Source of the DNA: an uncultured Acidobacteriota bacterium
Lineage (GTDB): Bacteria; Acidobacteriota; Terriglobia; Terriglobales; Acidobacteriaceae
Direction: 5' to 3'
NCBI GenBank assembly: GCA_963779365.1
Contig: CAVZYB010000030.1
Location: 90,117-154,116 of the forward strand
DNA: 64,000 nt
Shown here one piece after another: positions 1,119 through 45,790 of the stretch (position 1 is its first letter; each line of letters begins with the position of its first letter). A program made the position numbers and the translations under genes. The notes under the pieces are model-generated. The model was not told where the DNA came from, did not search any database, and saw nothing but the letters and a program-made list of their open reading frames with translations.

Positions 1119-1209
1119 AGCGTTTCCTTTCAATGGATGCGATCCAACGGCGCGCCTGGCAGCTGCGGCCGATCTCCGAAGCGCCATGATTCAGCCTTAC
1201 GCAGAGCCA

Positions 1210-7367: not shown

Positions 7368-7532
7368 GCGAACCTCGTGAAGATCGATGCCTTCTACAGG
7401 TACGGTCCTGAACTGGTGGGACTTTAATCTCTTGCTTACAAAGAGGCAAGCGAAAAGATTGTGGTTGCTTACCTAAGGTAATTAAGCTCTCCTCGCGCGA
7501 GACACTTCTTTCGCCGCAACCCTTCTTCCGCG

Positions 7533-7566
7533 CAAGACAAAGCCGTCCCCAGAAGGCGACGGCTTG
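7533..7566 (-). terminator. Rho-independent terminator downstream of mqnE
   Basis: Minus strand reads AAGCCGTCgccttctgggGACGGCTT followed by TGTCTTG. Begins about 20 nt after the mqnE stop (7587-7589). Confidence 0.6.
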
Positions 7567-7586
7567 AAAAATCTATGCCTGCAGTG

Positions 7587-8741: not shown

Positions 8742-8827
8742 TTCGTTATGATATCGCAACCGCAGAGAACGATGAAATCCAACCACCGAGAACGGGTGCA
8801 TAATATGCCACCGCCGTCACGGGAGCC

Positions 8828-8876
8828 CCGGGTGCCCCATGTTCGCCATCTTTTGGCTAACGTGGGGTTTTTGACT
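8828..8876 (+). repeat. REP-like hairpin, type I
   Basis: CCGGGTGCCCCATGTTCGCCatcttttGGCTAACGTGGGGtttTTGACT, located between the mqnE start and the aldo/keto reductase stop. Confidence 0.8.
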
Positions 8877-8932
8877 GTGTCTTCGCCGTTGCCGTTGCTC
8901 TTAACCTTGAAACTTTGAAACCTCTGAAACTT

Positions 8933-9909
8933 TCAAACCTGCCTCACACCGCCACCGTCTCCGCCTCCCGCCTGGTTCAATGCTTCCACTGCCCCAGGCG
9001 GCAGCTCCAGCCGTGTCGCCGCCACCAACTCCTGCAACTGCTCCACCGTGGTCGCGCTGGCAATCGGAGCCGTAATACTGGGCCGCGCCATCAGCCAGGC
9101 CAACGCAACCTGCGCCGGTTTAGCCTCCAGCTCGCGTGCCACCTCCACCAGTGCATCCAGAATCCGCATCCCACGCTCATTAAAGTATTTCTTTAACATC
9201 CCCGCCCGCGGACCGCTCGCCGCCTCTTCCGCCGAGCGATATTTCCCGCTCAGAAAGCCGCTGGCCAACGAGAAGTACGGAATCACCCCCAGCCCGTTTT
9301 TCACGCAAACCGCTTCCAGCGAAGACTCATATCCCGCCCGGTCGTAGAGGTTGTACTCCGGCTGCAAGCTCTCATAGCGTGGCCAGTTGTGTTCGCGGCT
9401 CACCTCCAGCGCCGAGCGCAGCCGCTCGGCCGTAAAGTTCGAAGCTCCAATCGCGCGCACTTTCCCCGCCTCGAATCAGCTCCGCATACACTCCCAGCGT
9501 CTCCGCCTGCGAGGTGTCATCGTCGTCGCGATGCGACTGATACAGATCGATGTAGTCCGTCTGCAACCGCCGCAGCGAATCCTCCACCGCCTGCCGGATG
9601 TAATTCCTCGACAACCCTTTCTTGCCCGCGCCCATGGGCGAGCCCACCTTGGTCGCCAGAATCACCTTCCCGCGATTTCCCCGCGCCTTGAGCCAGCTGC
9701 CCGATAATCGTCTCCGACTCTCCGCCGCTATTCCCCGGAGCCCAGTGCGAATACGAGTCCGCCGTATCCACAAAGTTCAGTCCGCTCTCCAGCAGCGCGT
9801 CCAGCAGTGCAAACGAGCGCGCTTCATCGGCGGTCCAGCCAAATACGTTGCCGCCAAGGCATAGCGCCGGCACTTCAATTCCGGAACCACCAAGTTGTCT
9901 CTTTTTCAT
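8933..9909 (-). pseudogene. Aldo/keto reductase (about 325 aa), at least 2 frame disruptions
   Basis: Three consecutive fragments. 9517-9924: MKKRQLGGSGIEVPALCLGGNVFGW...FVDTADSY. 9372-9773: KVILATKVG...LRRLQTDYIDLYQSHRDD. 8933-9460: IGASNFTAERL...PEYNLYDR...GVIPYFSLASGFLSGKY. Confidence 0.85.
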
Positions 9910-10005
9910 CCGACCCATCTCCAATTTTTAAGATGTCGCCCGCCCTCCCCAGGTGCATTCCTTTCCTGCCCCCGATACAATAGCCCTGTGCCTGGTCTCC
10001 CCAAA

Positions 10006-10872
10006 ATGCTCCATAACATTCGCGTAACTCTCGACATGATCAAGTGGGAGCATTCCTTTCTCACTCTCCCCTTCGGTCTCACCGGCGCCGTCATCGCCGC
10101 CAACGGCGTCCCGCCCCTGCGCACCCTCGCCTGGATCTGTGTTGCCATGGTCGCCGCCCGCTCTGCCGCCATGGCCTTCAACCGCCTGGTCGATGCCGAT
10201 ATCGACGCCCTGAATCCGCGCACTTCCGTCCGCGCCCTGCCCGCCGGATTGCTCACCCGCCGCTTCGTCCTCGGCTTCACCGTCGCGGCCTCGGCGCTGC
10301 TCTTCTTCGCCGCCTGGATGCTGAATCCGCTCGCATTTTATCTTTCGCCGCTCGCCCTCATCATCGTCTGCGGCTACTCCTACAGCAAGCGTTTCACCCG
10401 CTGGGCGCATTTGTTTCTGGGCTTCGCTATGGGCATTGCTCCCGCTGCCGCCTGGGTCGCGGTTCGCGGAACCCTCGATCCCCGCGTGCTCATCGTGACC
10501 GCTGCGGTCATGTTCTGGGGCGGCGGCTTCGACATCCTCTATAGCTGTCAGGATTACCACTACGACGTCGCCAGCGGCCTCCATTCCATCCCGCGCGCCT
10601 TCGGAATCGCCGGTGCCCTCCGCCTGGCCCGAGTCTTCCACCTCATCGCCTTCGCCTTCTTTGCCTGGATGCTCTGCAGCTTCGGCCTCGGCCGCCTGGC
10701 GATTGCCGGGGTCGCCATCACCGGCGTCGCTCTGCTCTACGAGCACACCCTGGTCAAAGCCGATGACCTCAGCAAACTCAATGCCGCTTTCTTCACCACC
10801 AACGGCTTCATCTCCATGCTTATTCTCTTTGCCGTCACCGCCGACCGTCTCTTCCTCGCCCATCGTCCCTAG
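10006..10872 (+). CDS. UbiA-family polyprenyltransferase, plausibly the futalosine-pathway prenyltransferase (MqnP-like)
   Basis: Multi-TM ORF with the motif AFNRLVDADIDALNPRTSVRALPAG and a second Asp-rich region, YSCQDYHYD. ATG at 10006 chosen; the track ORF starts at 9895. Confidence 0.75.
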   Translation: MLHNIRVTLDMIKWEHSFLTLPFGLTGAVIAANGVPPLRTLAWICVAMVAARSAAMAFNRLVDADIDALNPRTSVRALPAGLLTRRFVLGFTVAASALLFFAAWMLNPLAFYLSPLALIIVCGYSYSKRFTRWAHLFLGFAMGIAPAAAWVAVRGTLDPRVLIVTAAVMFWGGGFDILYSCQDYHYDVASGLHSIPRAFGIAGALRLARVFHLIAFAFFAWMLCSFGLGRLAIAGVAITGVALLYEHTLVKADDLSKLNAAFFTTNGFISMLILFAVTADRLFLAHRP

Positions 10873-12234: not shown

Positions 12235-15045
12235 TTACACTCCCAAAGTTTGGGTACGGATCTGCCTGCCGCGCGTGAGCCTTAATTTTCCCCGGTGCAA
12301 CTCTGCCGGTGGCTGGATGGTTTCCTTCCAAAGCAGGCATGCGGCGTCAATAGCTGAAAGAGGCTTGGAAAAGACGAAGCCCTGGATCAGATCGCAGCCC
12401 ATCCCCTGCAAGTCGGCAAGCTGCTCTTTCGTTTCGACTCCTTCCGCCACGGTCTTCAATCCCAGGTTATGGGCAAGGGTGATAATCGCCTCGACGATGC
12501 AGCGCGTACTGTCTGGCTCCAGCATTCTCACCACGAACGAGCGGTCGATCTTCAGGGTGTGAATGGGGAGCTGGTGCAGGTAACTCAAGCAGGAGTATCC
12601 GGTGCCAAAGTCATCCACCGACAGCATTACACCAAGCCTGGCCATCTCAGAAATCTGCCGTACAGAATCCCCGACGCCGCTCATCAGCATGCCCTCGGTG
12701 AGTTCCACCTCCAGCAGTTCCGGTTTCACGCCAGTCTTTTGAAGGGTGCGTGCCATGGTATCAGCGAAGTCCCCGCGAGCGAGTTGCAAGGGGGAAACAT
12801 TGAGTGCGACACGAACCGGACGTAAACCCTTCTCTTGCCACTCCAGGATCTGACGGCACACCTCTTCCAGAACCCATTCTCCGATGGGAAGGATGAGTCC
12901 ACTCTCTTCAGCCATGGGGATGAACCGGCTTGGCGGCACCATGCCGAGCTTGGGATGCTTGAAGCGCAACAACGCCTCGAATCCCTCCAGCCGACGATCA
13001 CAGGTGAACTGAGGCTGAAAGTGGAGCGAAAACGAACCTTCTTCGATTGCACGATGAAGCTGCAACTCGATTTCGATGCGATTGCGGTCTTCGATTACCT
13101 CGTCCGAATACTGCTGGACAAGATTGCCGCCCTGGGCCTTGGCCCGGTACATGGCACGGTCGGCGTTGCGTTGCAGTGTGTCGGCATCGATTCCATCCTG
13201 CGGATACACAGCAATTCCAATGCTTGCTGATCCATAGAGCGTTTGATTTTCCACCTCAAAGGGATCGCGGAGCGATGCGGTCAGCGATGCTGCCACTCGG
13301 CCGACGTCATGCACATCCTGGATGTCAGGCAGAATCAGAGTGAACTCGTCGCCCCCGGTGCGCGCCAAGGTGTCGCTATTGCGGAGGCGCGCGAGCAACC
13401 GGACACTGATCTGGCGGAGGAAGAGATCACCGGCATCGTGGCCGAGCGTGTCGTTGATGTCCTTGAAACGGTCTAGATCAATGGAGAGGAATCCAATTTG
13501 CGTCTGGTTGCGTTCTGCCCTTGCGAGCGCCTGTTTTAGCCTGTCGGCCAGCAGCAAGCGGTTGGGCAGTCCGGTGAGCGCATCGTGATAACCCTGGTGC
13601 AGCAGCCTTTCGTAGGCTCGATGGTGCTCGATGGCGAGGGCTCCAAGCTGCGCCGCTTGACGCAGGACATCCCTCTGCGCGGGTTCCAGCGCGGTTGTGA
13701 ATGGGTGGTTCAGTGCGATGGTGCCCAGCAGTTCGTTGGCTGCGGAAACCATGGACTCCGTCCACATGCCGGCGAAGCGTTCGCGGGCGATCGCGCGCAA
13801 GGGAACTTCCCAGTCTCTCAATTCCATCGAGCCATGGTGCGCATTCCGCTGAATGCGGTTGTAGGGCAGGGCACGAAGGGCGGAACGGAAGTCCTCCGGC
13901 AAATGGCGGGAGGCGACAACACGGAAATACTCGTCCTCGCAGACCAGAACCGAGCAGCAGTAGCCCGGCAGCCGCTGTTCCACGGCGGTGATCAGGAGTC
14001 TTGAGACTTCCTCGACCGGCTTGTTTCGCGAAATCATCTCCAGCAGTTCGGCGCAATTACGGGTGAACTGGACGGCGACTTCGCGCTCGGTTGTATCGCG
14101 CAAGGTCACGGTGGCGCCGATCGGCTCTCCGTCGCGAAAATTGGGAGAAGAGGACCACTCCACTGAGACCGGAGGACGATCCGGACGTAGGATGCGGGCC
14201 TTCGCCCGGCTGATTGGCATGGTCAGGCGAAGACTGAAATCCGAGAATTCCCGGGCCGAAGACAAGTCATCGTCGGGCGTCAGCACTTCCTGAATACATG
14301 AAACGGAAAGGTCCTTGCCGGGAACGGCCAGCATGCCTGCGGCAGTGGCGTTGACGAATGTGATGCGGCCACTGAGATCGACTTCGCAAATTGCGTGATC
14401 TGTGGAATCGACCAGTCTGCGCAGGCGTTCAGCACCGACCTGCAGATCCCCATTAACAAGCGTGAGATCGCGGACGGCCAGGAACAACAGCGTGATGGTG
14501 CTCGCGAACGGCCCGAGGAACTCACAGGAAGTTAAAAGCAGCGGGGCGAAGTTCGTGATCCAATGCATTGCCAGCACGATGCCTAGCAGTTCGCGCACCA
14601 TTCCGAGCACAAGAATCACTGAGATCACAGAGACGGTCCAGAGGTGGCGCTTCCTGTGTTCGTGCAGGCAAAACATAAGCAAGGCTAAGATGAGGAACGC
14701 AATCAGACTACGCGCGGCGGCAATTCGACTGGTAGAGTTGGCGAACAAAATCAGGAGAGCGAGACCGAGGAGGATGGATACGCTAATGGCGTACTTGAAG
14801 TAGTTCAACTGAGGCCTCTTCCAGAGAAGCCCGCGCCCGATGCATCCCATTTGCGCGCAAATACAGACCAAGAGAATTGGGCCAAGGATCGCCGGGGACC
14901 ATCCCTCGGCAAACCGCTCCAACAGCGAGGCCGACAATCCGATTCCCGTCGCATAAAACCACCAGCGGTTGGGGAGTTGTGCCACCAGACATGAAATTAG
15001 CGCGGCAGCAATACCTGTGATCCCGATTTGGGCGATAAAATCCAT
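12235..15045 (-). CDS. Membrane sensor with PAS, GAF, GGDEF and EAL domains (c-di-GMP cyclase/phosphodiesterase)
   Basis: Intact 936-aa ORF. N-terminal multi-TM region. RTGGDEFTL (GGDEF), EGFEALLRF (EAL), DDFGTGYSCLSYL, QGFVFSKP. Confidence 0.9.
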   Translation of the reverse strand: MDFIAQIGITGIAAALISCLVAQLPNRWWFYATGIGLSASLLERFAEGWSPAILGPILLVCICAQMGCIGRGLLWKRPQLNYFKYAISVSILLGLALLILFANSTSRIAAARSLIAFLILALLMFCLHEHRKRHLWTVSVISVILVLGMVRELLGIVLAMHWITNFAPLLLTSCEFLGPFASTITLLFLAVRDLTLVNGDLQVGAERLRRLVDSTDHAICEVDLSGRITFVNATAAGMLAVPGKDLSVSCIQEVLTPDDDLSSAREFSDFSLRLTMPISRAKARILRPDRPPVSVEWSSSPNFRDGEPIGATVTLRDTTEREVAVQFTRNCAELLEMISRNKPVEEVSRLLITAVEQRLPGYCCSVLVCEDEYFRVVASRHLPEDFRSALRALPYNRIQRNAHHGSMELRDWEVPLRAIARERFAGMWTESMVSAANELLGTIALNHPFTTALEPAQRDVLRQAAQLGALAIEHHRAYERLLHQGYHDALTGLPNRLLLADRLKQALARAERNQTQIGFLSIDLDRFKDINDTLGHDAGDLFLRQISVRLLARLRNSDTLARTGGDEFTLILPDIQDVHDVGRVAASLTASLRDPFEVENQTLYGSASIGIAVYPQDGIDADTLQRNADRAMYRAKAQGGNLVQQYSDEVIEDRNRIEIELQLHRAIEEGSFSLHFQPQFTCDRRLEGFEALLRFKHPKLGMVPPSRFIPMAEESGLILPIGEWVLEEVCRQILEWQEKGLRPVRVALNVSPLQLARGDFADTMARTLQKTGVKPELLEVELTEGMLMSGVGDSVRQISEMARLGVMLSVDDFGTGYSCLSYLHQLPIHTLKIDRSFVVRMLEPDSTRCIVEAIITLAHNLGLKTVAEGVETKEQLADLQGMGCDLIQGFVFSKPLSAIDAACLLWKETIQPPAELHRGKLRLTRGRQIRTQTLGV

Positions 15046-15307
15046 GGAGGTTCTCTGCTTAACTTTCCAGCCTCACATCATCCGATGCAGGCTATATTGC
15101 CCACGGGAACTGTAGCATCAACAACGGATCAGCTGAACGGCTGTCTTCGTATGACAATTACGTTGGTAACCTGAAAATGGCTACTTATGAGTAGATCGGG
15201 ATACGGTGCGGTGATGGCAACCCGCTGCTCTCCGGTTAAAGCCGTACGGAATCAATTGACGGATGGAATCGCATAAGTCAGTGCAGGAGCCGGATGCGGG
15301 AAGTGCC

Positions 15308-15344
15308 CCTCAGACTTGCGCTTCTCGAAAGCGCAAGTCTGAGG
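15308..15344 (-). terminator. Perfect 16-bp stem hairpin downstream of the ADH gene; no U-tract
   Basis: CCTCAGACTTGCGCTTctcgaAAGCGCAAGTCTGAGG, 60 nt after the ADH stop (15405-15407). Confidence 0.4.
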
Positions 15345-15404
15345 ATCTGACGGCTGATACAGGCTGGCCTCCGGCCCGAAACGCGAAAGTGCTTATATGT
15401 CGGA

Positions 15405-16464
15405 TTACTCAGACTTGAGCGAAGCCATGTCGATAGAGAAGCGATACTTCACATCCGACTTGAGCAGTCTCTCGTAAGCCTCGTTGACCTTCTGGATCGG
15501 GATCACTTCGACATCGGCGGTGAGGTTGTGCTGCCCGCAGAAGTCGAGCATTTCCTGGGTTTCGGCGATTCCGCCGATAGGAGAACCGGAGAGACTGCGG
15601 CGGCCCATGATCAGGCCGAATGCCGAAACGGAGAGAGGCTTTTCGGGCGCGCCGACGAGCGTAATGTTGCCGTCGCGTCGTAGTAAATTGATGTACGCAC
15701 TGATGTCGTGGTCGGCGGCAATAGCATCGAGGATGAAGTCGAAGCTGCCGGTGTGCTTTCGCATCTCGTCGGCATTCTTTGAGATCACGACCTCGTCTGC
15801 TCCGAGCCGGAGTGCATCTTGCTTCTTGCCCGGTGAAGTGGTGAAGACCACAACGTGGGCTCCGAGTGCATGGGCAAACTTCACGGCCATGTGGCCCAGT
15901 CCGCCGAGACCGGCCACGCCCACTTTCTTGTCCTTGGTGACGCCCCAGTGGCGCATGGGCGAGTAGGTTGTGATTCCCGCGCAAAGCAAAGGAGCTGCGC
16001 CGGCGAGATCGAGGTTCGACGGGAACGCGCAGAACAAACCTCTGGTCGACGACGATGCTGTCGGAGTAGCCGCCGTAGGTGACGCCTCCGAGGTGTTTGT
16101 CAGGCAGGTTGTAGGTAAAGATCACATTGGGGCAGAACTGCTCAAGCCCCGCTTTGCACTCAGGACAGGTGCCGTCCGAATCCACCATGCATCCGACCGC
16201 GGCGAGGTCACCGGGCTTGAACTTGGAGACCGCAGAGCCAGCCTTGGTGACGCGGCCGACGATCTCGTGGCCAGGGACGCAAGGGTAGACGGTCGGCATC
16301 ACGCCGCTCCACTCGTTGCGAACCTGATGGAGATCGGAGTGACAGATACCGCAGAAAAGAATTTCGATCTGGACATCGTGTTCGGTGGGATCGCGCCGCA
16401 CGATCTTGGTGGAGGCTAGCGGCGATGTCGCACTGGCAGCGGAATAAGCTTTCGCGTTGAACAT
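15405..16464 (-). pseudogene. Zn-dependent NAD(P) alcohol dehydrogenase (cinnamyl-ADH/YahK-like), one frame disruption near 16011-16026
   Basis: N-terminal part: GICHSDLHQVRNEW...VPGHEIVG...CPECKAG (ORF 15409-16515). C-terminal part: LLCAGITTYSPM...VGVAGLGGLGHMAVKFA (ORF 15405-16037). Removing one base restores ...FVLRVPSNLDLAGAAPLLCAG. Confidence 0.9.
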
Positions 16465-16573
16465 GTGACTTAATCTAGATGCTCGCCGCGCTTTACGGTA
16501 TGCAACACACGCCATTGTTTATGCAATATGCGCCAGAATGCGTGACAGCAAGTGAGGATTCTTGACGGTCGGT

Positions 16574-17437
16574 TCAAGAGGCCCCCATCGGCAGTACCGA
16601 GACCTCAACGTCAACGCTGTGGGAACCCCCACCCACTGCGATTCCGCTTACCGGCGTCACGTCACCGTAGTCGCGGCCCCAGGCCAGGATTACGTGGCCA
16701 TCGGACGGCATGACGTCGTTGGTGGGATCGAAACTAAGCCACCCGCTACCGGGGACGAAAGCCGATACCCAGGCATGAGAGGCTTCGGCTCCCAGACTTC
16801 CAGTACTGCTGCGCAGGTATCCGCTGGTATATCGGGCCGCCAATCGCAAAGACCGCAGCGCGCCGATCATCACATGCGCGAAATCCTGACAGACTCCCTG
16901 CCGGTTGCGGAGCACCTCGAGGAGGGGCATCTTGATCGAAGTCGATTTGGGCCGATAGCGGAATTCGACGTGGATGCGGTGAGATAGCTCTTTCAGAGCA
17001 TCTACCAGCGGGCGCTGGGGAGTGAACGTAGGTCTGGCGAACTCCGCAAGCTCAGGGTCGCTGGAAACGAAAGGAGAATCAAATACAAATTCTAGGGCCT
17101 CAAGAGACTCGTCATCGGGGTGCGAGGCAATCAGATCGCGAGCTTGCTCCCAGGCGGTGCTGAGAATCGGATCCTACTGTGAGTGGCTGCACTTCGACGA
17201 CACTGTTGGCTTTGATCACGAGTCGATATGGGTTTCAAAGATCGCGGCCATGGTAACGTCATTCCCAAAATAGTCTTTCCGGCGCTGCAGGGTAGCCGGT
17301 TCCGGTTGGATGGAGAGGTCGCTCTCGCGAACTTGCTGGCCAGGGAATGAACGCGGAGTGAGATGCAGCTCATTGAGAGACTGAGAAACCGGCGACTGGT
17401 ATAAGTGGCTTGTGATATGGGTGACAGAGTAGAGCAT
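16574..17437 (-). pseudogene. Transglutaminase-fold protein (about 288 aa: Bact_transglu_N-type N-terminus plus transglutaminase core), at least 2 frame disruptions at about 17170-17216
   Basis: N-terminus MLYSVTHITSHLYQSPVSQSLNELHLTPRSFPGQ...RRKDYFGN (ORF 17216-17476). Core RQGVCQDFAHV ... SHAWVSAFVPGSGWLSFDPTND (ORF 16574-16930), giving a Cys-His-Asp triad. Start lies 7 nt after the upstream stop, with GAGGA in between. Confidence 0.85.
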
Positions 17438-17444
17438 ACGATCC

Positions 17445-19980
17445 TCAATAAGACGACACGAAGCGTGAGGCGACAACAGGGCTCAAATAGTGAGTGGCTA
17501 ATGCGTCAGAGAGATCGTACATATCCCGCTTTAGTCGTTCGAGCAAGCTAACCAGTGCCCCGAGATGGCCTTCGCCGTCCCTGCGTGCCAGATCCGCCAT
17601 TGGCGTGGCACGGATTGACTCAAGGGCTCTCGATACCAATTCCTGCTCGAGATGACAGACGGTGTTGTTGTACTCCGGCAGCTTCGCCAAGTGGTCGAGA
17701 AGAGCGGCGAACTGAAAGCCGATGGAGCGTGGATTAGACTCGTCCACAAGTAAAAGATCCAGCACCAGTTCCGTGCGCAGAGCAGTGAGATAGCGGGTGC
17801 GGTAGGTGATGGAGCTGTCCGCAATGTGAAGCAGTATCTGAAGATATGGTTCGATTTCCTCCGGAGCTTCGGCCACTCCGGCTTGCAACAATTCCGCCAT
17901 ATGCCGCGCGCGCTCCAGGCGTCGCCCGATTTGAAGAAACCTCCATCCGTGTCCCCTGGTGGTGTTCTCCATTACTAGGCCGACAAACGCGGAAAGTGTC
18001 ACGATGGCGCTGTCGAGCAAATTAATCTCGGAAAGGTAACGGTTGAGGATTTGTAGAAATGCCTTGGGATAAATCTCCCTCAATCTGCTGGAGTACTCGC
18101 CATGTATCGGAAGAAAGTCGTTCCTTCAAATGCAGGGCTACCCGGCGCATCTGCTTGAGATTCCATCCCAGGCCGGTGGGCCCGCTTTCGTCCCGAATCA
18201 TATCGGCCAGCAAGTGCTGCACCCGCCACAATTGTTCCCCAAGCGAGGCGTGGGAGATTTCAGGCGGCAGATACCCTAACCCAGTAAGCAGACGCACAAC
18301 CGTCTCGAGAGAAGCCGTGCGTCCGAAGTCCTCTTCGCCGGAAAGCGCTGGCAGCAGTGCTCGCAGAAGCCGCACTCGATCCTCCAGGCGTTCAGCATAT
18401 CGTCCTAGCCAGAAGAGATTGTCCGCAGCCCTGCTGGGCAGATTCGTCCAGCTCGTATGGGCGGTGATCGATCCGAACTCTGGGCGCGAGACGACGTTTG
18501 GTTCTCCCAGGCCACCGGGCACCCAGGTGTCCTTGCTTCCTCCTCCGCGATGAATGGAAACTGCTTGGGAAGTTTCCTTTGTTGAAACGCGAGTCAGTCC
18601 TCCAGGCAGCACCGAATAAGACTGCCCATCCCAGGAGGCAAAGACTCTGAGCAAGACGTGACCCGAAGCGAGCCCGGTGTCGGTGTAAACCGGCGCCGTA
18701 GAAAGAGCAAACTGTTCCTGAGCCACAAACTGCTCAGGTTGCGCCTGGATTCTAGCGATCAGCCTGCCGCGGGTCGCGGCATCCATAGACGCCGGAAATT
18801 CCGGCCGCTGGCCGAAGTGGGGGAATGTGGGCAGAATCACCAAGTCACTGAGGTGCTCGAGCGACGTAGCGCCGAGAGTCCTCCTGCCCGCACCACCAGG
18901 TAGCCACCGGCGACATCAGCAGTTCTTCCCCAAGCAGATGATCGCAGAGCCCCGGGAGAAATGGGAGGAGAGCCGGGGCTTCCAATAATCCGCTTCCCAG
19001 AGCGTTGTCGACAGCCACCGTGCCACTTCGCACGGCCTGCACCAGCCCCGGCACGCCGAGCGCTGAATCGCTGCGCAATTCGAGGGGATCGCAGAAGCTA
19101 TCGTCGAGCCGGCGCACGATCAAATCCACCGGTTCGAGCCCCGTCAGTGTTCTTAGATAAACGCGGTTGTCGCGCACCGACAGGTCGGCGCCTTCCACCA
19201 GAGCAAAGCCCCAATGGCCAGCAAGAAAGGAATGCTCGAAATAAGTTTCACTATGCGGCCCGGAGGTTAATAGCACAATGCGAGGGTTGGGGTGCTGAGT
19301 CGCTGCCAAACTAAGCAGGGCATTCCTTGTCGTATCGAAGAAGCCTGCCAGTTGCCGCACGCTGCATGAACTGAACACATTGGACAGAGTTCGGGCGCTC
19401 ACTAATCTGTTTTCCAGCGCATAGCCAATGCCCGAAGGGGCTTGTGTTCGATCCGATGTCACCCGCCAGCTTCCCTCGGGTGAGCGGGCCAGATCAGCCG
19501 CATACGAGAGCAGGTGCACGCCACCGGAGGGCTTAATTCCGTGGCAGGGCCGCAAGAAATGCGGGTTCGCAAAGACCAGCGCTGGAGGAATCCACCGTTG
19601 ATGAAGGAGTTGCTGCTCTCCATAAAGGTCGACCAGCACGGCATTGAGCAAGGTGGCCCGCTGGATGACCGCCCTTTCGATTTGAATCCATTCGTTTTCG
19701 GGGATCACCATTGGAATGGGATCCAGCGGCCAACGGCGTTCGCTACCGTGCAGATCGTCGCCTACGTTGAAGGAAGTGCCGTTGGCTTGAATGAGTTGCT
19801 GACCGTTTTGCCATGAGCGGCCAAGGGCCTCAGGCCCCATTCGCCCGATGGCGACTGCGATATCTCTCCAGTGACGGCGTGGATAGCCGGAGGGCAGAAG
19901 CGCCTCGTCCCAATGTCCCTCGACGCTGGCGTAGTGCCACTCGTTCGGGTGGGTTGCGGCCGGGTTTAAGAATCTTCCAT
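17445..19980 (-). pseudogene. Fusion of a circularly permuted ATP-grasp (type 2) domain and an alpha-E domain (about 845 aa), at least 3 frame disruptions; start approximate
   Basis: ORF 18845-19840: [48 protein letters not shown] 18022-18843: [16 protein letters not shown], then LPSRAADNLFWLGRYAERLED (alpha-E). ORF 17445-18083: GWRFLQIGRRLERA. The reading frame continues upstream of 19840 (...HPNEWHYASVEGHWDEALLPSGYPRRHW). The nearest ATG is at 19978-19980, in another frame. Confidence 0.8.
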
Positions 19981-20009
19981 TCGTACGGCTGTCCGGCAGT
20001 GGATTCTCC

Positions 20010-23000
20010 CTATCGCATGCCCCCTGGCATTGACGCGCGCCGCAGATCCAGCGTCACGGGAAACTCGGCGTTCTGATCGACCGGCGGTACAATCACGGGA
20101 CCCGGCGTATGCCCAAAGGCAAAAAAACGAGCCATCCGCCGTGCTTCGGCTTCATTCGAGTTTACCGGGATCGTATCATAACTTCGTCCTCCGGGATGCG
20201 CCACATGGTAGGTGCAACCCCCGATGGAACGTCCGGCCGCAAGATCGATCACATCAAACACCAGCGGCACGTGAACCGGGATTGTAGGATGCAGGCAGTG
20301 CGGCGGCTGCCACGCCCGGTAACGGACTCCACATACGAACTCGCCATTTTTACCGGTTGGATGGAGGGGTAGTCGCCGGTTGTTGCACGCAATCGCAAAG
20401 CGCTCGCCGATAAGGCCTCGCACCCGCACCTGCATGCGCTCGAGCGAGGAATCCACGTAACGAGTCGTGCCGCTGGCGCCCGGTTCCTCGCCCAGCACAT
20501 ACCAAGGTTCAATCGCCTGGCGCAGTTCTAGTTCGATGCCCCCGTAGCATACCCGACCAAACAAGGGGAAGCGAAACTCCAGATGAGGGGCAAACCAATC
20601 GGCTTCGAACGGGTACCCGGCCTGCTGCATTTCGCCAATTACCCCCTTGAAATCCTGCTCAACGAAGTAGGGCAGCAAGAAAAGATCGTGCAGACGGGTT
20701 CCCCAGCGAATCGGCGGCTCCTCGTACGAGCTGCGCCAGAAGCGGGCCACCAGTGCGCGTACGAGCAGTTGTTGCGCGAGGCTCATTCGGGCATGGGGAG
20801 GCATCTCGAAGGAACGAAGTTCGAGCAGTCCCAATCTTCCCGTCGCGCTGTCGGGAGAATAGAGCTTATCGATACAGAACTCGGCACGATGGGTATTGCC
20901 GGTGACATCGACCAGCAGGTTGCGGAAGATACGGTCCACGAGCCATAAGGGAAGGTCGCCTGGGTTCGCTCGGCTGAGCTGGTCGAACGCAATCTCCAAC
21001 TCATAGATTGCATCTGCGCGGGTTTCATCTACTCGCGGGGCCTGACTGGTAGGACCGATGAATACTCCCGAGAACAGATAGGAGAGTGAAGGGTGATTGA
21101 GCCAGTATCCGACAAAGCTTTTCAGGAGATCTGGACGGCGGAGAAAGGGACTATCCGCCGGCGTGGAGCCGCCAAGTACCACGTGGTTGCCGCCACCGGT
21201 CCCAGTATGACGGCCGTCCAGCATGAACTTATCGGTGCCGAGACGGCTCAGGCGTGCCTGTTCATAAAGTGTGACAGTGTTTTCGACGAGCTCGCGCCAA
21301 TCGGCTACGGGCTGCACGTTCACCTCGATGACCCCTGGATCAGGCGTGACCTTCAATTGGCGTACCCGCGAGTCGAAAGGCAGCGGATAGCCCTCAATGG
21401 AGATCGGCATTTCAAGCTGTGCCGCGGTGTCCTCTATGGCGGTTATAAGATCCACGAAGTCCTCGGCGGTACTCGTCGGCGGAAGGAACGCGCATAGCCT
21501 TCCCTTCCGCGCCTCCAGAACGAGCGCGGTGCGCACCACAGGGCCCTGCGCTGCGACGGTGGGCGATGAAACGGTTTCCGGGCTTTGTTGCCGAATCCGG
21601 ACGTCGCTCCGCTGGTGCCTGGGATGAAGCCTCGGTGGAACGGGCAAAGGAGAGGTTGGGGCCATTGGATCGAGTATCCATGCCTGCTGCCTCTCTCCGC
21701 TGGGCTCCCAGAAGAGTGACTCCAACGGCAAACGGAATCCCACGGGAGAATCCCCCGGAATCAGGAAAAGGTGCCGGGCGCGGAGCATCCACAAACTTGT
21801 CTGCCACTCTGGGCCGCTTTTGCCCTGCACCCGCTGCAACGGCAGCACGAAGCCAACGGGCTGGCCGAGACCGCGCTCAAATACGCGCCGGAGCCGCTCG
21901 CGTTCTTCCGGATCATCGAGATCGCTGGTCAGCGGATCGATGTTTACCGGAAGCTGGCGCTCCTTGAGCAGATAGGCCATAGGATCTTCGTACGCTGCGA
22001 TTACAGCGTCAGGGTTCACCGTGAGCCTTTGGGCCAACGCTTCTGCGAATTGCCGGGCCGCGTCGCTGCCGCAGCCGTAGTCTCGATCTGGATAGGCCGT
22101 CCACTGCGGATCACGCCAGAGCGGAACTCCATCGCTGCGCCAGTAACAGGTGAAAGCCCAGCGCGGCAGAGATTCGCCCGGGTACCATTTGCCTTGTCCA
22201 AAGTGCAGCAAGCCGCCGGGGGCAAACTTGTCGCGCAACCGGAGCAGCAATTCGCGCGCGCAGCGCTGTTTAGATGGACCAAGGGCTTCGGTATTCCACT
22301 CATCGCCGTCCATGATCGTCCATGGAGACAAAGGTCGGCTCACCACCCATGGTAAGCCGGACATCGCTGGCGACAAGCTCGCCGTCGATCTGGTCGCCAA
22401 GATTGCAGATGCGAAGCCATTCCTGTCTGAGTAAGGCTTGGAAACACGCGGATCTTCGTGGATGCGAGTGATGCGCATCTCATGATGAAACTCGACCTCA
22501 CAGGGACTTATCCCGCCAGCGACCGGCGCAGCAGAAGTGGGCTCAGGTGTTCCCGATAGCGGAATGTGTCCCTCGCCTGCGAACAGTCCCGAGGTCGGAT
22601 CCAGACCAACCCAACCAGCGCCGGGCAGGTAGACTTCAGCCCAGGCATGGAGATCGGTAAAGTCCGTCTCCGGTCCCGGGGGGCCTTCCAGAGGTTTTAC
22701 ATCCGGTTTCAGTTGGATCAGGTATCCGGAAACAAAACGGGCCGCCAAGCCCAGGTGACGCAGCATCTGCACCAGCAACCACGCCGAATCCCGGCAGGAA
22801 CCGCTGCCCAGTTCGAGCGTTTCCTCCGCGCTCTGAACCCCGGGCGCCATCCGAACCAAGTAGCGGATTTCGCGGCTTAACCGGCGCATTGAGGCCGACC
22901 AGAAAGTCGATGATCGGGGTCTTGCGCCGGTCGATGCCGGCGAGGAAACCTTCCAGGTGCGGACCTGCGGGCGGTACCTCCAGGAACTGCGCCAACTCAC

Positions 23001-23337
23001 GACGCTCCCCGGAGGCATAGCGAAGCGGAAAGCTCTCGTATTCCGGTTCGAGGAAGAAATCGAACGGATTGATCACTGCCATTTCCGCGACCAGATCTAC
23101 TTCCAGGGAAAAGTAGCGTGTCTGGTTGGGAAAGACCAGGCGGGCCAGAAAGTTTCCGTGCGGGTCCTGCTGCCAGTTGATGAAGTGATCTTCCGGTTGG
23201 ACGCGCAACGAATAACTCGACACCTGCGTTCGGCTGTGCGGCGCGGGGCGGAGGCGCACCACCTGCGGCGAAAGCGTGACCAGCCGGTCGTATTGGTAAA
23301 TTGTCTTGTGATGAAGCGCGACTCGAATGCCCATCAA
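20010..23337 (-). pseudogene. Large transglutaminase-fold protein (about 1100 aa: N-terminal transglutaminase core plus a long DUF2126-like C-terminal region), at least 3 frame disruptions
   Basis: N-terminus [33 protein letters not shown] (ORF 22636-23337). Core GSGSCRDSAWL ... DLHAWAEVYLPGAGWVGLDPTSG. Long conserved tail: GGGNHVVLGG, THRAEFCIDKLYSP, LLELRSFEMPPH (ORF 20010-23018). The start (TTG 23337 or ATG 23334) overlaps the alpha-E stop. Confidence 0.85.
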
Positions 23338-24344
23338 CTTTCGCCCAACGCCGAAGCGGACATGGCCTGTTGCCGTCGGGCAAAAAAGTCAAGCTGGAGG
23401 TTGTCGCCGATGGCATTCATTTTCGCCTGTAACCCGTCGAGATACTCGTGAAGACCATCGCCGAGAACGCGATCCACTGACGTAAAGTCCAACTCGGCAT
23501 GAAGCAAGCCCATGAGTTGTTCGGAACGATAATGGAAGGACCCCGTAGGTGTGCCGGTGACGGCATGCAGACATTCGTCTGCGTTGTGAATGCAGTGGTG
23601 TATTGCGCGTGGAAAATTGTGGTCCAGTACCAGAAAATCGACGATATCGCGAGGTAATATCCGCCCATGCTTCTTGCGGTACATTTCAAAGCCGCTCACA
23701 GACTTGAGTACCGCGGACCAATGCAGGTCGTCGTAGGGCGTACCTACGAATGTGGTCGACGGCAGTAAAATAAAGTATTTTACATCCAAGATGCGAGAGA
23801 TCTTTTCGGCCCGTTCGATACTGGCGCCAAGACGCATAAAGTGCCACGCTTCGTTGTGACTCATCGTGGTTTCGAAAATGCCGCGGAATAGGTGGCAGCC
23901 AAACTGAAGATGGCGCAAGCGCTCCGAAAATCTTTCGGACTCTGACACCTTCCAGTAACTCGGCTGGAACTGAAGATACGTCCGATTGACCTGCTCCCAC
24001 ATCTCCGACGAAATCGTCTCGCGAACCGAACGGGCATTTTCCCTCGCTGTCTTCAGACAGGAGCAAATCGAATTAGGATTCGATTCATCCACAATCAGAA
24101 ATTCAAGTACATTTTCCCGAGTGGCCTCGCCGTAACTCTGCTGAAACTCCGCTGTGTCTCCGCTGGTATCGATCAGTGGCTGCCACTGGTGCGCCGGCAC
24201 GAGTGGCAGATCCAGTTGGAGGTGAAGATTGACTGCGATGAAACGAGCCACGTTCTCAGCACGCTCAATGTAGCGTGCCATCCAGTACATCGACTCGGCC
24301 ACGCGGCTCAGCAAAGGCTGTGATCGAGAGATCATGCCATGCAC
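23334..24344 (-). CDS. Alpha-E domain protein (DUF403 family)
   Basis: Intact [27 protein letters not shown] near the N-terminus, and [21 protein letters not shown]. The likely start, ATG 24333-24335, forms an ATGA overlap with the ATP-grasp stop; the track start is GTG 24344. Confidence 0.85.
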
Positions 24345-25786
24345 TCCTGTTGCGATTCCGCCAGTACCCAGGTGTCCTTGCTGCCTCCGCCCTGTGACGA
24401 GTTCACAACCAACGAACCCTTGCGCAACGCCACACGAGTCAGCCCGCCCGGCATGACGTTGATTTCTTCGCCATAGAGAATGTATGGCCTGAAATCGACA
24501 TGCCGTCCCTCAAAGTGGTCACCTATCAAGGTCGGGACCCTGGAGAGGTCCAGTGTAGGTTGAGCAATGTAGTTCCGGGGATTTGCTTCAATTCTGGCGG
24601 CGAACTCTTTACGCTCTTGCGCCGTCGAGTGTGGTCCAATGAGCATACCGTACCCCCCTGATTCATTCGCCGACTTGACCACCAGAGTTTCCAGATTTTG
24701 CAGTACGTGATTGAGGTCCTGTTTCCGCCAGCACTGGAAGGTTGGCACATTGGGCAGAATCGCATCTTCGCCTTCGTAGTACCGGATAATGTCAGGCACG
24801 TAGGAGTAAACCACCTTGTCGTCGGCAACACCATTGCCCGGCGCGTTCGCCAGCGCCACCCGTCCCTTCCGATAGACTTCCATCAGGCCAGGCACGCCGA
24901 GCAGCGAATCCGGACGGAACACCGTTGGGTCCAGGAAGTCATCGTCGAGACGGCGATAGATCACATCCACTTTGCACAAACCCTTGGTCGTGCGCATCCA
25001 AACCATCCCCTCCTGCACGACCAAGTCACTTCCCTGGACCAGTTGGATTCCCATCTGCTGCGCCAGAAAGCTGTGCTCGAAGTAGGCCGAGTTGTACATT
25101 CCCGGAGTTAGCAGCACCACGGTGGGATGATCCGCGCCGGGCGGCGCAATGGCCTGCAAAGTCTCCAGCAGAGTGCTGGGATAATCCTCAACGTGGCGGA
25201 CCTGCAGGCCATTAAAGACACGGGGAAACGTGCGCTTCATTAATGCCCGATTCTCCAGTACATAAGACACTCCGGAGGGCACTCGCAGGTTGTCCTCCAG
25301 GACATACATCTGGCCGTCGCTATGGCGCACTAAATCGGTGCCGGTGATGTGGCACCAGACCCGTCGTGGAGGATTGATGCCGTGGCACTCTGGACGATAG
25401 AAGGCGGCCGAGCGAACAACTTCTTCAGGGATGACACCGTCCTTCAGAATCTTCTGCTCGTGATAAATATCATCGATGAATTCGTTGAGAGCGTGAATAC
25501 GCTGCTTTAGTCCACGCTCGATCCATTCCCATTCTTTGGCACCAATGATGCGCGGAATCAGGTCGAAGGGGAAAATCCGCTCCGTTCCGGCAGACTGACC
25601 GTAAACATTGAAGGTGATGCCAAGCAGCAACAGCAGTCGCTCCGCCGCGCCTTGGCAGCGCAACAATTGACCTTCCTCAAGCGACTCGATTGTGTCCAGT
25701 AACATGCGCGCTTCCGCACGCACTTCGCCATCGGCGGCGAACATCTCGTCGTGAAAGCCCTCAATATGATAGGAATCGAATTGCAC
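24332..25786 (-). CDS. Circularly permuted ATP-grasp (type 2) protein, stand-alone (484 aa)
   Basis: Intact ORF with a GTG start after [76 protein letters not shown]. Confidence 0.85.
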
Positions 25787-25824
25787 TATGCGCCCCTCTC
25801 CGAGCGTAGTTCGACATACATCAT
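25786..25824 (-). CDS. Candidate 12-codon upstream micro-ORF ([12 protein letters not shown]) overlapping the ATP-grasp start. Speculative.
   Basis: Minus strand: GGGAGGtagtgagaagATGATGTATGTCGAACTACGCTCGGAGAGGGGCGCATAGTG. The TAG shares its G with the GTG start of the ATP-grasp gene. Confidence 0.15.
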
Positions 25825-26036
25825 CTTCTCACTACCTCCCTCGCACTTGCTATTCAAAGAACTTATAGGATGGATAAGCGGAAACTACCGTTTAGTGTTG
25901 CCCAACAAAATCCCGGCCCCACTTCCTCCCGAGTTGCAAACCCGGTGTTCCAGAAGGCCCTACTGAGAATCCACGTCGGGGTGTTCCTCGCTATTCACGG
26001 AGAGCAATCGGGTGAAGGCCTATGCACAGGGCTGTG

Positions 26037-26852
26037 CTATGAAGGCGTCCGACACTCGTCCGTCCAGACCTTGAAACTTTTCAGCGTATTGAATCCAAAT
26101 GTGTTGCTGATAGGCACATCGGCTGCGTCACGTCCTCGAGCCATCAACACCCGACCGACGCGAGGCACATTGTTCCTAGGGTCAAACGTGTACCACCGGC
26201 CGTCAAGAAACGCTTCGAACCACCCGGCAAAATCCCCTACATGCGGAGGAGGCGTCCCGATGTCGCTCAGATAACCGGTGCAATAGCGCGCGGGGATGTT
26301 CATACATCGACAGAAGGTGATCGCCAGATGCGCGTAGTCGCGGCAAACGCCCTGGCCTTCACTGAATGCCCCCCAGGCCGATTTTGTTGGGTTGGCGAAT
26401 CCGTAGCCGAACGCAATATGGTGATGGACGAAATCACAGATAGCCTGAACCCGTCCCCACCCAGTTGGGGATTTGCCGAAAAGATCCCAGGCAACTTGAG
26501 AGAGGCGGTCAGTTTCGCAATACCTGCTGCCCAGGAGAAATACCAGAACGTCTTCCGGCAATTCCTGAACCGGCTGCTGCTGCGCCTCGCAGGCGACGGT
26601 ATCCGGGGTGCCCGTATCCGTGATGGTGCCATCCGCCGAAATACGAATTTCGCCGATCGGGGCGACGATCCGGCTGCACCGGTTGCCGAAAGCATCGTCG
26701 TAGACGGCAATCGGCACCGAAGGGGAGGTCGTCAAGGTGTCCGGCGTAATAATGTCAGAGACACGGGTTCGATGGATATTCACCATCAAAATCATGGGTG
26801 TCGGCTGGGAACATTCATAGACGATTTCATAGCCAACGCGGAGAGTGCTCAT
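26037..26852 (-). CDS. Transglutaminase-fold protein (271 aa) with a non-canonical residue at the expected catalytic His position
   Basis: Intact ORF. GQGVCRDYAHL (Cys), DFAGWFEAFLDGRWYTFDPRNN (Asp present, where the paralogues have HAW), RVLMARGRDAADV. Confidence 0.8.
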   Translation of the reverse strand: MSTLRVGYEIVYECSQPTPMILMVNIHRTRVSDIITPDTLTTSPSVPIAVYDDAFGNRCSRIVAPIGEIRISADGTITDTGTPDTVACEAQQQPVQELPEDVLVFLLGSRYCETDRLSQVAWDLFGKSPTGWGRVQAICDFVHHHIAFGYGFANPTKSAWGAFSEGQGVCRDYAHLAITFCRCMNIPARYCTGYLSDIGTPPPHVGDFAGWFEAFLDGRWYTFDPRNNVPRVGRVLMARGRDAADVPISNTFGFNTLKSFKVWTDECRTPS

Positions 26853-27337
26853 GATATGGATACTTTGACCTCAATAGGTTTGATGCTCCAAACAGGCGCG
26901 GCAACGCCGCCCGTTGGTGACATCACACTGCATTGTGACACCTAAACACTGTCCCGCGCCACATTTCTGGCCCAGGATAATCTATGGGGTTCGGCGATTG
27001 AGACGTGCTCGGTTTCCTCATGGCCGCCTCTAGACCGATGGGAAACTTCATTTCCGATATGATGTTGGCCGTCTATTGCAATGCATCTCAGTTTACCCAC
27101 CTGCAGTTTTTGCCTGCGCAGCCGATAGTCCCTCCAGTGGGCGGAATGCCACGGGATAATGGCGAGCAAAGCGGGTGGTGCAGGTCGGCGGTTATCGCAT
27201 GGCGTGGGTATGATACGCGGAGAAGGATGAAACCGACACCGTGCGTTTGATGGCAAAGGCGGGTTTCGACCAAAGCGCAAGCCGCCTGCGACGACCGCGG
27301 ATGCGGCCTGCCCGTCGGATAAATAGCCAACGCGGAA

Positions 27338-29219
27338 TTAGATTCGTCCTCCCACGTACCAGGGCGCACTCACCGTAAAGATGCGTTCATTGCCGCGGGC
27401 GAGCAGCACCCATTCCAGAAGCCGGCCACGCTGATTGTGAAGGAAGTATTCATACCATCTGTCTTCCACGAGCTCGGGTATGACCACGATGATGCTGCGA
27501 TCGGGATGCTTTTTCGAAAGATCGAGAACGAACTGAACGATGGGAATGATGACGAAGCGGTAGGGTGAGGGCAGGACATGGAGCTTTGGCGGCTCCTTGC
27601 CGGCCGCGCGAAACGGTTCTTCAACGTAGCGCTTCCAGTCCGTCTCGAAGCAATTCGGAGTGCTCGCTGGGCTCGACGTGCAGGGCGATCACTTCCGGTG
27701 AAAGCCGGGCGGCAAATTCAATTCCCTGGCGGGTGATGTTGCTCCAGCGGTCGATGGGAATGACGGCAATGGGAGGCTGGCTGAGGCCTGCGGCGTGGAC
27801 CGGAACCTTGCAGGTGGTGAGCACCTTTACGGAGTGGTAGTGGCGGCGGACAGCGGACGAAGAAAACAATCGTCAACGGAATGAAAAGCAGCGTAATCCA
27901 TGCGCCTTCCACGAATTTCGCAACCAGCACGACAACCACCGTGATGCCGGTGACGAGCGCGCCGAGCCCATTGACCAGCGCGCTCTTCAGCCAATGCGGC
28001 CCGCGATTCTTTCAGCCAGTGCATGACCATGCCGGCCTGCGAAAGCGTGAAGGCCAGAAAAGCGCCGACGGCATAGAGCGGGATGAGCCGATCGGTGACG
28101 CCGCCAAAAAGATGAGAAGGCCGCCGCAGAGCACCGCCAGGACAACGATGCCGTAGGTATAGACGAGCCGCCGCCCGCGGTACCCGAAAGCGTGCGGGAG
28201 GTAGTTGTTCTGCGCGATGGCGCGGCAGAGGCGCGGAAAATCGGCGAAGGCGGTGTTGGCGGAGAGCGAAAGAACGAAAAGAATCGAGGCGATGGTCAGG
28301 TAGTAGAAAAAGCCTTTGCCGAAAACGGCGGCGATGAGCATGGAGAGAACGCTCTGGTAGCCGGGCTGGCCCGGATCGGTGGCGGCGATGCCGTAAACCT
28401 TCACAAGATAGGAAATTCCCGCCAGCAGCACCGCCAGGAGAAAAATAATCACGGTGAGAGTGCGCTGGGCGTTTTTCACGGCTGGCTCGCGGAAGGCCTT
28501 CACGCCGTTGCTGACAGCCTCCACGCCGGTCAATGCCGTGCAGCCGCTGGCGAAAACCTTCAGCAGCAGCCAGTAGCTGACGGCTTCGGTCACGCGGCGG
28601 CGGAGGCGGAAGGGGCGCCACCGGCGTGGGATGTCCGCCGCTGAGGAGAACACGGATAACGCCCGCGACGATGGTAATGAGAAGCGTGCCGACAAAGAGA
28701 TAGGTGGGAACCGCGAAGGCCAGGCCGGCATCGCGCACGCCGCGGAGATTGAGGATGGTGATGACGATCAGAATGCCGACGCAGAGAGAAACCGTGTGCG
28801 GCAGCAAGGACGGAACGGCCGAGACCAAGGCGCCGACTCCCGCGGAAATGCCCACGGCGGCGGTGAGGATGTAGTCGGCGAGCAGCGCGGCCGCGGCAAG
28901 CAGGCTGGCCGGTGCGCCAAGGTTGAAGCGCGCCACGGTATAGGAGCCGCCGCCGGAAGGATAGGCGGCGATGGTCTGGCGATAGGAAAAGTACACGATC
29001 ACGAGCAACGTGATGATGGCGGCGCTGATGGGAACGATGTACCGCACGCCGAGCAGGCCAAGCGGGAATCAGAAGGCTGAGAGCCGCTTCCGGGCCGTAA
29101 GCAGCCGAGCTAAGCGCGTCGAGACCAAAGATCGGGATGCCCTGCGCCGGACCGATCTGCTCGGCGCGTTCGTCACTGGTCTTGATGGGCTTGCCGACAA
29201 CGAGGTCAATGATGTTCAT
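27338..29219 (-). pseudogene. APC-superfamily amino acid/polyamine permease with a cytoplasmic C-terminal extension (about 625 aa), at least 6 frame disruptions
   Basis: N-terminus MNIIDLVVGKPIKTSDERAEQIGPAQGIPIFGLDALSSAAYGPEAAL. TM segments are spread over ORFs 27827-29047, 28012-28731 and 27718-27939. My own read of the tail gives DWKRYVEEPFRAAGKEPPKLHVLPSPYRFVIIPIVQF...IFTVSAPWYVGGRI followed by TAA at 27338-27340. Confidence 0.8.
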
Positions 29220-29331
29220 GAGGCAATGGGGTCCGTGCAAATCATCAGGATGTCTCCTTGGGGCTGGGGTTGTGCCAACCGCCGGCTGCAGCGATGATCG
29301 CGTCAGCCTGTTTCCCCGGAATCAATAGCGA

Positions 29332-45780: not shown

Positions 45781-45790
45781 CTGGCTTTCC

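Follow-up and report, generated by a model that had tools for sequence, protein, structure and literature searches.

A probable five-gene ATP-grasp/Alpha-E/transglutaminase operon, with reading frames damaged in the deposited sequence, in an uncultured acidobacterium

Bacterial genes for a circularly permuted (CP) ATP-grasp ligase, an Alpha-E protein and a transglutaminase (TGase)-fold protein are known from two described systems, and we compared both with a gene array on the minus strand at positions 16574-26852 of a stretch of DNA from an uncultured acidobacterium (the window, meaning the whole 64-kb stretch). The first system is genomically associated with Anbu, from which proteasome subunits have been proposed to descend. 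In the triad of the Anbu operon (COG2308-COG2307-COG1305; P. putida PP_2685-2688), a CP-ATP-grasp gene is followed by an Alpha-E gene with overlapping stop and start codons, and then by a gene for Bact_transglu_N plus a TGase core. The window is arranged alike. M. tuberculosis Rv2411c-Rv2409c is presumably another triad with this gene order. The same grasp, Alpha-E, TGase order has been described for the Anbu operon (PMC6376114, PMC5666114, PMC3235984). There are also differences. Anbu, which is frequent but not obligatory in such operons, was not found in the 64-kb window by tblastn with two Anbu-like proteins (nothing better than E 0.14). The third gene here encodes a TGase-DUF2126 protein of ~1100 amino acids (aa), whereas that of the Anbu operon encodes a TGase of ~290 aa, and no sigma-54 motif precedes the array of the window.

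The second system is the Rv2566-type module (B. cenocepacia I35_5080-83 / BCAM1235-36), whose N-terminal TGase and C-terminal DUF2126 are matched by the large protein of the window. As in 48/56 loci of our survey, a fused CP-ATP-grasp/Alpha-E gene and a small TGase gene lie downstream, here with frames interrupted in the record. The window joins this module to the stand-alone grasp/Alpha-E pair by a TGATG overlap, whereas Pseudomonas loci have no such pair within 10 kb. In M. tuberculosis the two modules presumably stand at separate loci. Both modules and their predicted chemistry were already published in 2008-2009, and the window is one more copy. What goes beyond the literature consulted are survey-level leads: a linkage that is shuffled but kept, a TGase substitution in Anbu loci, sigma-54 motifs, and an accessory TGase that lacks its catalytic His.

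On balance, we consider it likely that the array is a functional five-gene operon, with one accessory gene, of a widespread CP-ATP-grasp/Alpha-E/TGase system, and that its frames are damaged in the deposited sequence alone. Six genes lie on the minus strand, and each of them matches its named family in a Pfam profile search (E 1e-16 to 0). This upholds the domain calls of an earlier sequence-only reading for all six products, together with its identification of an uncharacterised ATP-grasp/alpha-E/transglutaminase system. In the order of transcription, the parts of the array are as follows, with the evidence for each.

26037..26852 (-): accessory upstream transglutaminase-fold gene, 271 aa; Pfam Transglut_core alone, 4e-19
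25787..26036 (-): spacer of 250 nucleotides (nt) between the accessory gene and the five-gene unit; sequence
24332..25786 (-): stand-alone circularly permuted ATP-grasp ligase, 484 aa, intact; Pfam and PDB match
23334..24344 (-): stand-alone Alpha-E protein, intact; Pfam Alpha-E (PF04168), 1e-100
20010..23334 (-): large protein of ~1100 aa, Bact_transglu_N plus transglutaminase core plus DUF2126; Pfam, three insertions or deletions (indels) in the record
17445..19969 (-): fused CP-ATP-grasp plus Alpha-E protein, ~841 aa; Pfam on three fragments, tblastn
16574..17437 (-): small transglutaminase-fold Cys-His-Asp protein, 287 aa; translation and triad alignment

The stand-alone ATP-grasp protein matched CP_ATPgrasp_2 (PF14403, 1e-172) and CP_ATPgrasp_1 (PF04174, 6e-146), both over the full length, and is 79-93% identical to the best 120 database matches listed. 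Where the best matches of the array were named by source, they came from Terriglobia, Bryobacteraceae or Acidobacteria. The accessory TGase is 84% identical to its orthologue in L001, the locus of a relative with 4.4 Mb. For the interrupted genes, Pfam domains were recovered piecewise. Those of the large protein lie on fragments 22636-23337 and 20010-23018 (-), with a DUF2126 match of 1228 bits covering model positions 2-826 of 826; the protein is 80-81% identical to intact proteins of 1103-1108 aa and, in the repaired frame, 87% identical to that of locus L004. The fused gene gave CP_ATPgrasp and then Alpha-E on fragments 18845-19840, 18022-18843 and 17445-18083 (-), and Transglut_core was found on 16574-16930 (-) of the small TGase. 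In NCBIfam, no model matched any of the six proteins.

Not every detail of the sequence-only reading survived this comparison. It had described an array made from three domain types alone; DUF2126, which accounts for roughly one quarter of the coding sequence, is a fourth type and a separate predicted ligase domain. The ATP-grasp motifs it quoted are present in both grasp copies. The Alpha-E motif beginning with LSR, said to be in both copies, does not hold for the fused copy, which reads PSRAAD. The two ligase copies are old paralogues and not redundant duplicates; their grasp parts are 37-40% identical and their alpha-E parts 23%. As for the proposed three TGase-fold Cys peptidases, the triad alignment supports two. 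Cys-His-Asp is kept in the small TGase (GVCQD / SHAW / FDP) and in the large one (GSCRD / LHAW / LDP). The upstream copy at 26037-26852 has the Cys and the Asp, but its catalytic His is replaced by Gly (DFAGWFEA). Gly or Ala (DFAGWFEA / DFAAWFEA) stands at this position in the window and in the orthologues of L001 (8898-9716), L005 (3228-4046) and L080 (6537-7337). This protein may be a pseudo-enzyme or may use another base. A more distant orthologue in L023 retains the His.

The genes of the five-gene unit are tightly packed. The grasp and alpha-E genes meet in an ATGA overlap (24335-24332), with the ATG at 24335 as the likely start of Alpha-E, and in the TGATG at 23336-23332 the ATG of the large gene overlaps the alpha-E stop codon. 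A 7-nt spacer with GAGGA (17444-17438) precedes the small TGase gene. These three junctions had been read correctly. The fourth, taken as a gap of about 30 nt, is longer, since an ATG codon at 19980 lies in another frame than the fused gene and reads MEDS*. In relatives the fused gene starts at a TTG, and the same position in the window is TTA (19969-19967); with the start placed there, the gap after the large gene is therefore ~40 nt. Five relatives, found through protein look-ups, share the order grasp, alpha-E, large TGase-DUF2126, fused gene, small TGase as well as the tight junctions (the contig of one of them, L005, stops inside the large gene). Together with the packing, this supports the earlier suggestion that at least five genes look like one translationally coupled operon. 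It does not extend to all six: the upstream TGase lies 250 nt away and is present in L001 and L005 but absent from L002-L004, and because of this we regard the conserved unit as five genes. In the 250-nt spacer we looked for a promoter, a terminator or an RNA motif (Rfam, sigma-70-like, terminator and sigma-54-like searches) and detected none; over 15000-28000 there was no Rfam family, and promoter and terminator consensus matches were not above chance. A spacer look-alike of a sigma-54 site, TGGAAC...TTTGCA, was rejected for its wrong GG-GC spacing.

We then examined how widely the two modules occur together. GTDB species genomes were scanned with the large protein as anchor, and the resulting 80 loci were annotated by tblastn. 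They span Acidobacteriota, Alpha-, Beta- and Gammaproteobacteria, Desulfobacterota, Planctomycetota, Verrucomicrobiota and Kiritimatiellota, with 56-71% identity in the large protein, which at E<=1e-30 has matches in 1658 clusters (at 50% identity). Linkage was counted in the 56 loci with sufficient flanking sequence.

48/56 loci: core (large TGase, fused gene, small TGase) present
23/56 loci: stand-alone grasp/alpha-E pair within 10 kb of the core, in four arrangements and several phyla
8 loci: pair directly upstream on the same strand, as in the window
8 loci: pair upstream, divergent
5 loci: pair downstream, same strand
2 loci: pair downstream, opposite strand
33/56 loci: no pair within 10 kb, all 12 Pseudomonas loci among them

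Linkage of the two modules is much commoner than chance would give. In 23 of the 56 loci they stand together, and the other 33 show them to be separable. Anbu-like genes (Pfam Proteasome) adjoin the large TGase-DUF2126 gene in five loci: L043 (17676-18389), L054 (7178-7876), L058 (15839-16675 and 17782-18600), L065 (19444-20226) and L072 (9256-9969). In L054, L058 and L072 the large gene stands with grasp, alpha-E and Anbu genes, while the fused ligase and the small TGase are missing; there the usual TGase of the Anbu operon seems to have given way to the large protein. Clustering of flanking open reading frames (ORFs) of at least 70 aa over the survey loci gave no further partner conserved across phyla. 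Likewise, among clustered intergenic ORFs of 20-90 aa, none was conserved beyond Pseudomonas synteny, and no precursor or tag ORF was found. In L082 (Burkholderiaceae), a gene for the urease accessory protein UreD (2728-3558), a nitrogen-metabolism neighbour, directly follows a divergent grasp/alpha-E pair.

The frames of three genes of the array are interrupted. Alignment with intact relatives placed seven indels in the record, at ~22887, 22422, 22314, 18863, 18046, 17228 and 17162. The last two are a compensated -1/+1 pair in the small TGase gene that yields two in-frame stop codons, and the others are these.

22885..22889 (-): first break of the large gene, a +1 insertion when aligned with L001 and L002
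22420..22424 (-): -1 deletion, break 2 of the large gene, offset by break 3, 108 nt downstream
22312..22316 (-): +1 insertion, break 3 of the large gene; alignment with relatives
18861..18865 (-): +1 insertion in the fused gene; alignment with relatives
18044..18048 (-): -2 deletion in the fused gene; alignment with relatives

Such breaks are a property of the whole record. We proposed frame switches by a codon-usage Viterbi segmentation of the window and then confirmed them by Pfam; the codon-usage model is weak, missing the small TGase and part of the upstream TGase. Outside the array, frame breaks occur in genes for SecA, pyruvate dehydrogenase E1, an aldo-keto reductase, an amino-acid permease, a glucan phosphorylase and an alcohol dehydrogenase. 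In the first five of these, Pfam domains continue across the joins (with four switches in SecA), and the alcohol dehydrogenase gene next to the array is split likewise. The regions concerned are 52942-55677 (secA), 1-3868 (aceE/aceF), 8945-10013, 27353-29220, 43396-45790 and 15405-16515. We estimate ~30 frame switches in the 64-kb window, and translations stitched over them read as normal proteins. The breaks are therefore a caution: an ORF-level reading of this contig calls for frameshift-aware translation. The indels belong to the deposited record, since its own 959-aa ORF stands in the protein collection (P0121). The large gene of L001 (12459-15771) is itself split into 470 and 623 aa by a 1-nt insertion of its own, which suggests another error-prone long-read assembly.

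We also compared the broken genes with the closest intact locus, L004. The ratio of nonsynonymous to synonymous substitution rates (dN/dS) was 0.10 for the large gene, 0.13 for the fused gene and 0.12 for the small TGase, against 0.07-0.08 for the intact neighbours (0.07 for the stand-alone ATP-grasp), and all five genes of the unit are under purifying selection. Since the frame switches run through the whole window and the ratios are nearly equal, the damage points to the assembly and not to gene decay; moreover, a bacterium could not live with a secA broken in this way, which argues that the indels are assembly errors. The seven indels and the TTA start are thus very probably errors of the deposited assembly.

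Published expression data and our motif survey tie both modules to nitrogen limitation in Proteobacteria. In B. cenocepacia, the cluster of a 'large transglutaminase-like protein' depends on NtrC and sigma-54 (PMC5491218). Nitrogen limitation induces P. putida PP_2685-2688, the Anbu-type operon, which is listed under NtrB/NtrC control (PMC7801951, PMC8050072), and marine metagenomes show the three domains varying together with domains of urea metabolism (PMC3597751). We defined a sigma-54 motif as TGGCAC-N5-TTGCW with at most two mismatches and with GG and GC fixed, for which the background is 0.064 per 430 nt. A motif of this kind stands before the first gene in 24/45 regions, made up of 12/12 Pseudomonas loci and 12/33 other loci. 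That Proteobacteria and a small number of other phyla conserve it ahead of the first gene agrees with the NtrC dependence published for Burkholderia. In L018, L020-L022, L024, L026, L029, L030, L033 and L046 the motif (e.g. TGGCATAAGTCTTGCG) lies ~53 nt before the large gene; further loci with it are L012, L013, L016, L037, L050, L055, L056, L066, L067, L072 and L077.

Structures place the proteins with differing clarity. The stand-alone ATP-grasp aligns end to end with PDB 3n6x (E 3e-172), a Methylobacillus flagellatus protein of exactly the same family whose structure has been solved. Its deposited name, 'putative glutathionylspermidine synthase', is a prediction, and we know of no ligand or activity attached to it. 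For the large protein we used an AlphaFold model of an 81%-identical relative, of moderate quality (mean predicted confidence, pLDDT, 69). Its N-terminus matches the TGase-like cysteine protease 3isr (Foldseek, 2e-11). Among the weak, non-significant matches of its C-terminus (E 0.19-0.47, on the same model), glutamine synthetase (GS; 9n4x, 8v1y) and YbdK (1r8g, 1tt4) recur. Pfam labels DUF2126 a putative amidoligase. We compared it with the carboxylate-amine ligase superfamily of GS, GCS2 (YbdK) and PafA; it exceeds YbdK more than twofold in size, and its ligase activity is a prediction. Its invariant motifs (DPGVIEVN, DGRHTGTGGGNH, LELRSFEMPPH) presumably resemble the metal- and nucleotide-binding motifs of GS, which we take as a lead only. 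A GS-like assignment of DUF2126 is consistent with these data, though unproven by them. Iyer and colleagues put the Rv2566 family in the carboxylate-amine (glutamine synthetase/GCS2) ligase superfamily (PMC2588565), and a literature search for 'DUF2126' by name returned no paper. The Alpha-E model (AlphaFold2) is all-helical, with a pLDDT of 84, and has no structural neighbour in the PDB; the protein carries invariant Glu/Arg motifs. Within Alpha-E (23334-24344), an invariant ER motif occurs twice, at residues 24-34 and 175-187, each time on a long helix of the model, which may reflect duplication of a helical unit within the protein.

Taken as a functional system, the array would encode three predicted ATP-dependent carboxylate-amine ligases, namely two CP-ATP-grasp enzymes, each with an Alpha-E partner, and DUF2126. 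One grasp/Alpha-E pair would act as two proteins and the other as a single fused chain, and because the two are fused in one gene, grasp and Alpha-E probably form one physical unit. Alongside would stand two thiol (Cys-His-Asp) TGase-fold enzymes, one of them fused to the DUF2126 ligase. The ligases are predicted to form amide bonds, of the peptide or gamma-glutamyl type, through acyl-phosphate intermediates, and the TGase-fold enzymes may hydrolyse or transfer the same type of bond through a thioester. Acting jointly, the enzymes could assemble and trim either a small compound of peptide-like nature or a peptide that marks proteins. There is no tag ORF and no Anbu here, and we therefore lean to a metabolite or to a mark made from free amino acids. 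By extrapolation from Proteobacteria, the likeliest role would be nitrogen scavenging or recycling.

Several observations weigh against this reading. To our knowledge, no substrate or product is on record for any member of the system. In this the sequence-only reading was right; its statement that no phenotype is known either needs amending in view of NtrC-dependent expression (PMC5491218, PMC7801951), the release of phosphate from ATP by the Yersinia ATP-grasp (PMC6376114), and M. tuberculosis Rv2569c, for which protease activity and a deletion/infection phenotype have been claimed (PMC11081392). That protease was reported to be of the serine type, not a thiol protease (PMC11081392). Pull-downs in Yersinia gave no stable complexes of Anbu with the other operon proteins (PMC6376114). 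Rv2411c and Rv2567 made no GABA-trehalose, which excludes one product alone (bioRxiv 10.64898/2026.04.15.718621). The GS-like fold of DUF2126 was recovered weakly, and a profile search of PDB sequences found no ligase. The GG-N10-GC sigma-54 promoter is absent upstream of the array in the window, L001, L002, L004 and L005; because the acidobacterial loci have no such motif, a nitrogen link in this acidobacterium would be an extrapolation across phyla. Finally, that the indels are artefacts is a strong inference from the deposited sequence and its relatives.

How do other explanations fare? The sequence-only reading had raised the worry that half of the array is dead. If the three downstream genes were true pseudogenes, the array would be decaying, with the first three genes alone working. 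The distribution of the indels speaks for it: all seven fall within the 6.8 kb of the three downstream genes and none in the 3.5 kb of the three upstream ones, they lie outside long homopolymers, and the start position of the fused gene is TTA. Nevertheless, at ~0.5-1 indel/kb window-wide, a clean 3.5 kb has a probability of ~0.03-0.17. The same kind of indel breaks secA, whose four frame switches fall within Pfam domains, as well as aceE and four other genes; the dN/dS values of the broken genes are near those of the intact ones; and the genes of relatives are intact, with the frameshift of L001 in its large gene as the sole exception. We therefore consider decay very unlikely. A larger, yet still small, chance goes to the possibility that the modules are functionally independent and merely side by side, the grasp and alpha-E pair on the one hand and the large TGase, fused and small TGase genes on the other. 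The core lacks a nearby pair in 33/56 loci, every Pseudomonas locus included, the pair of P. putida has its own Anbu operon (PMC8050072, PMC7801951), and the three-gene core is self-sufficient in domain content. By contrast, the pair is found near the core in 23/56 loci, in four orientations and several phyla, and since the linkage is kept though shuffled, it suggests functional coupling. In L054, L058 and L072 the large TGase even stands with the pair and Anbu and no fused gene, both modules are NtrC-dependent in Proteobacteria (PMC5491218, PMC7801951), and the large gene of the window begins in overlap with the alpha-E stop codon. The earlier proposal of one pathway instead of two independent copies gains from the age of the paralogues and from recurrent linkage, and loses from the separability of the modules in 33/56 loci; two parallel, co-regulated pathways would fit these data as well as a two-step one.

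A specific form of the functional-operon reading is protein tagging akin to pupylation or polyglutamylation, in which the ligases would attach amino acids or a peptide to target proteins or to Alpha-E, the TGases would remove the mark and Anbu, in genomes that have it, would degrade the marked proteins. We hold this to be rather unlikely. The prediction is credited to Iyer et al. 2009 by PMC6376114, Anbu is frequently associated with the system in the literature (PMC5666114, PMC3235984) and in five of our loci (L043, L054, L058, L065, L072), and Alpha-E has its invariant Glu/Arg motifs and no enzyme-like fold match. On the other hand, no conserved small tag ORF occurs near the array in any phylum (also PMC2588565), the 64-kb window has no Anbu gene, Anbu itself showed neither peptidase activity nor complexes with the operon proteins (PMC6376114), and no adduct has ever been reported. 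Another, unlikely, idea is that of the five-gene array as one nitrogen-starvation machine, where the GS-like domain and the two grasp/Alpha-E ligases would build a peptide without the ribosome, either to mark proteins or Alpha-E or to serve as a nitrogen-rich store, and the TGases would edit or release it. If true, bacteria would thereby have a counterpart of polyglutamylation or pupylation that feeds proteins to Anbu where Anbu is present, and the interchange of small and large TGases in Anbu-type loci would mean that this one pathway has the GS-like ligase as a third step that is optional. Both ATP-grasp ligases and peptidases of the papain-like kind also occur in graspetide pathways, which make ribosomally synthesized and post-translationally modified peptides (RiPPs), and in some defence systems. 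This general likeness in content is what favours an anti-phage defence system or a RiPP/natural-product cluster. PADLOC gave no match for any of the six proteins, there is no conserved precursor-peptide ORF, and a large protein 56-71% identical across phyla, in chromosomal and housekeeping-like contexts, is unlike mobile islands of defence or secondary metabolism; we regard such a role as extremely improbable.

The functional-operon reading concerns a system among the most conserved bacterial gene sets that lack an assigned function. The window by itself adds no new biology, but the survey sharpens a testable picture: the two modules recur together in many phyla, the small TGase can be substituted by the large TGase-ligase, and proteobacterial sigma-54 motifs match the published NtrC dependence. 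This picture points to nitrogen-starved Pseudomonas or Burkholderia rather than to this uncultured acidobacterium.

Two minor observations concern the locus L002. At 7025-9483 (minus) it holds a second, divergent pair of a 520-aa CP-ATP-grasp and a 299-aa Bact_transglu_N/TGase protein, without an Alpha-E gene, which adjoins a ParE/RHH toxin-antitoxin pair. Its spacer between the large and fused genes measures 440 nt (15836-16277) and contains several GC-rich palindromic units (GGGCTTTAGCCCGG-like). The repeat is absent from the window, L001 and L004, and it looks like an insertion of repeats of the REP type.

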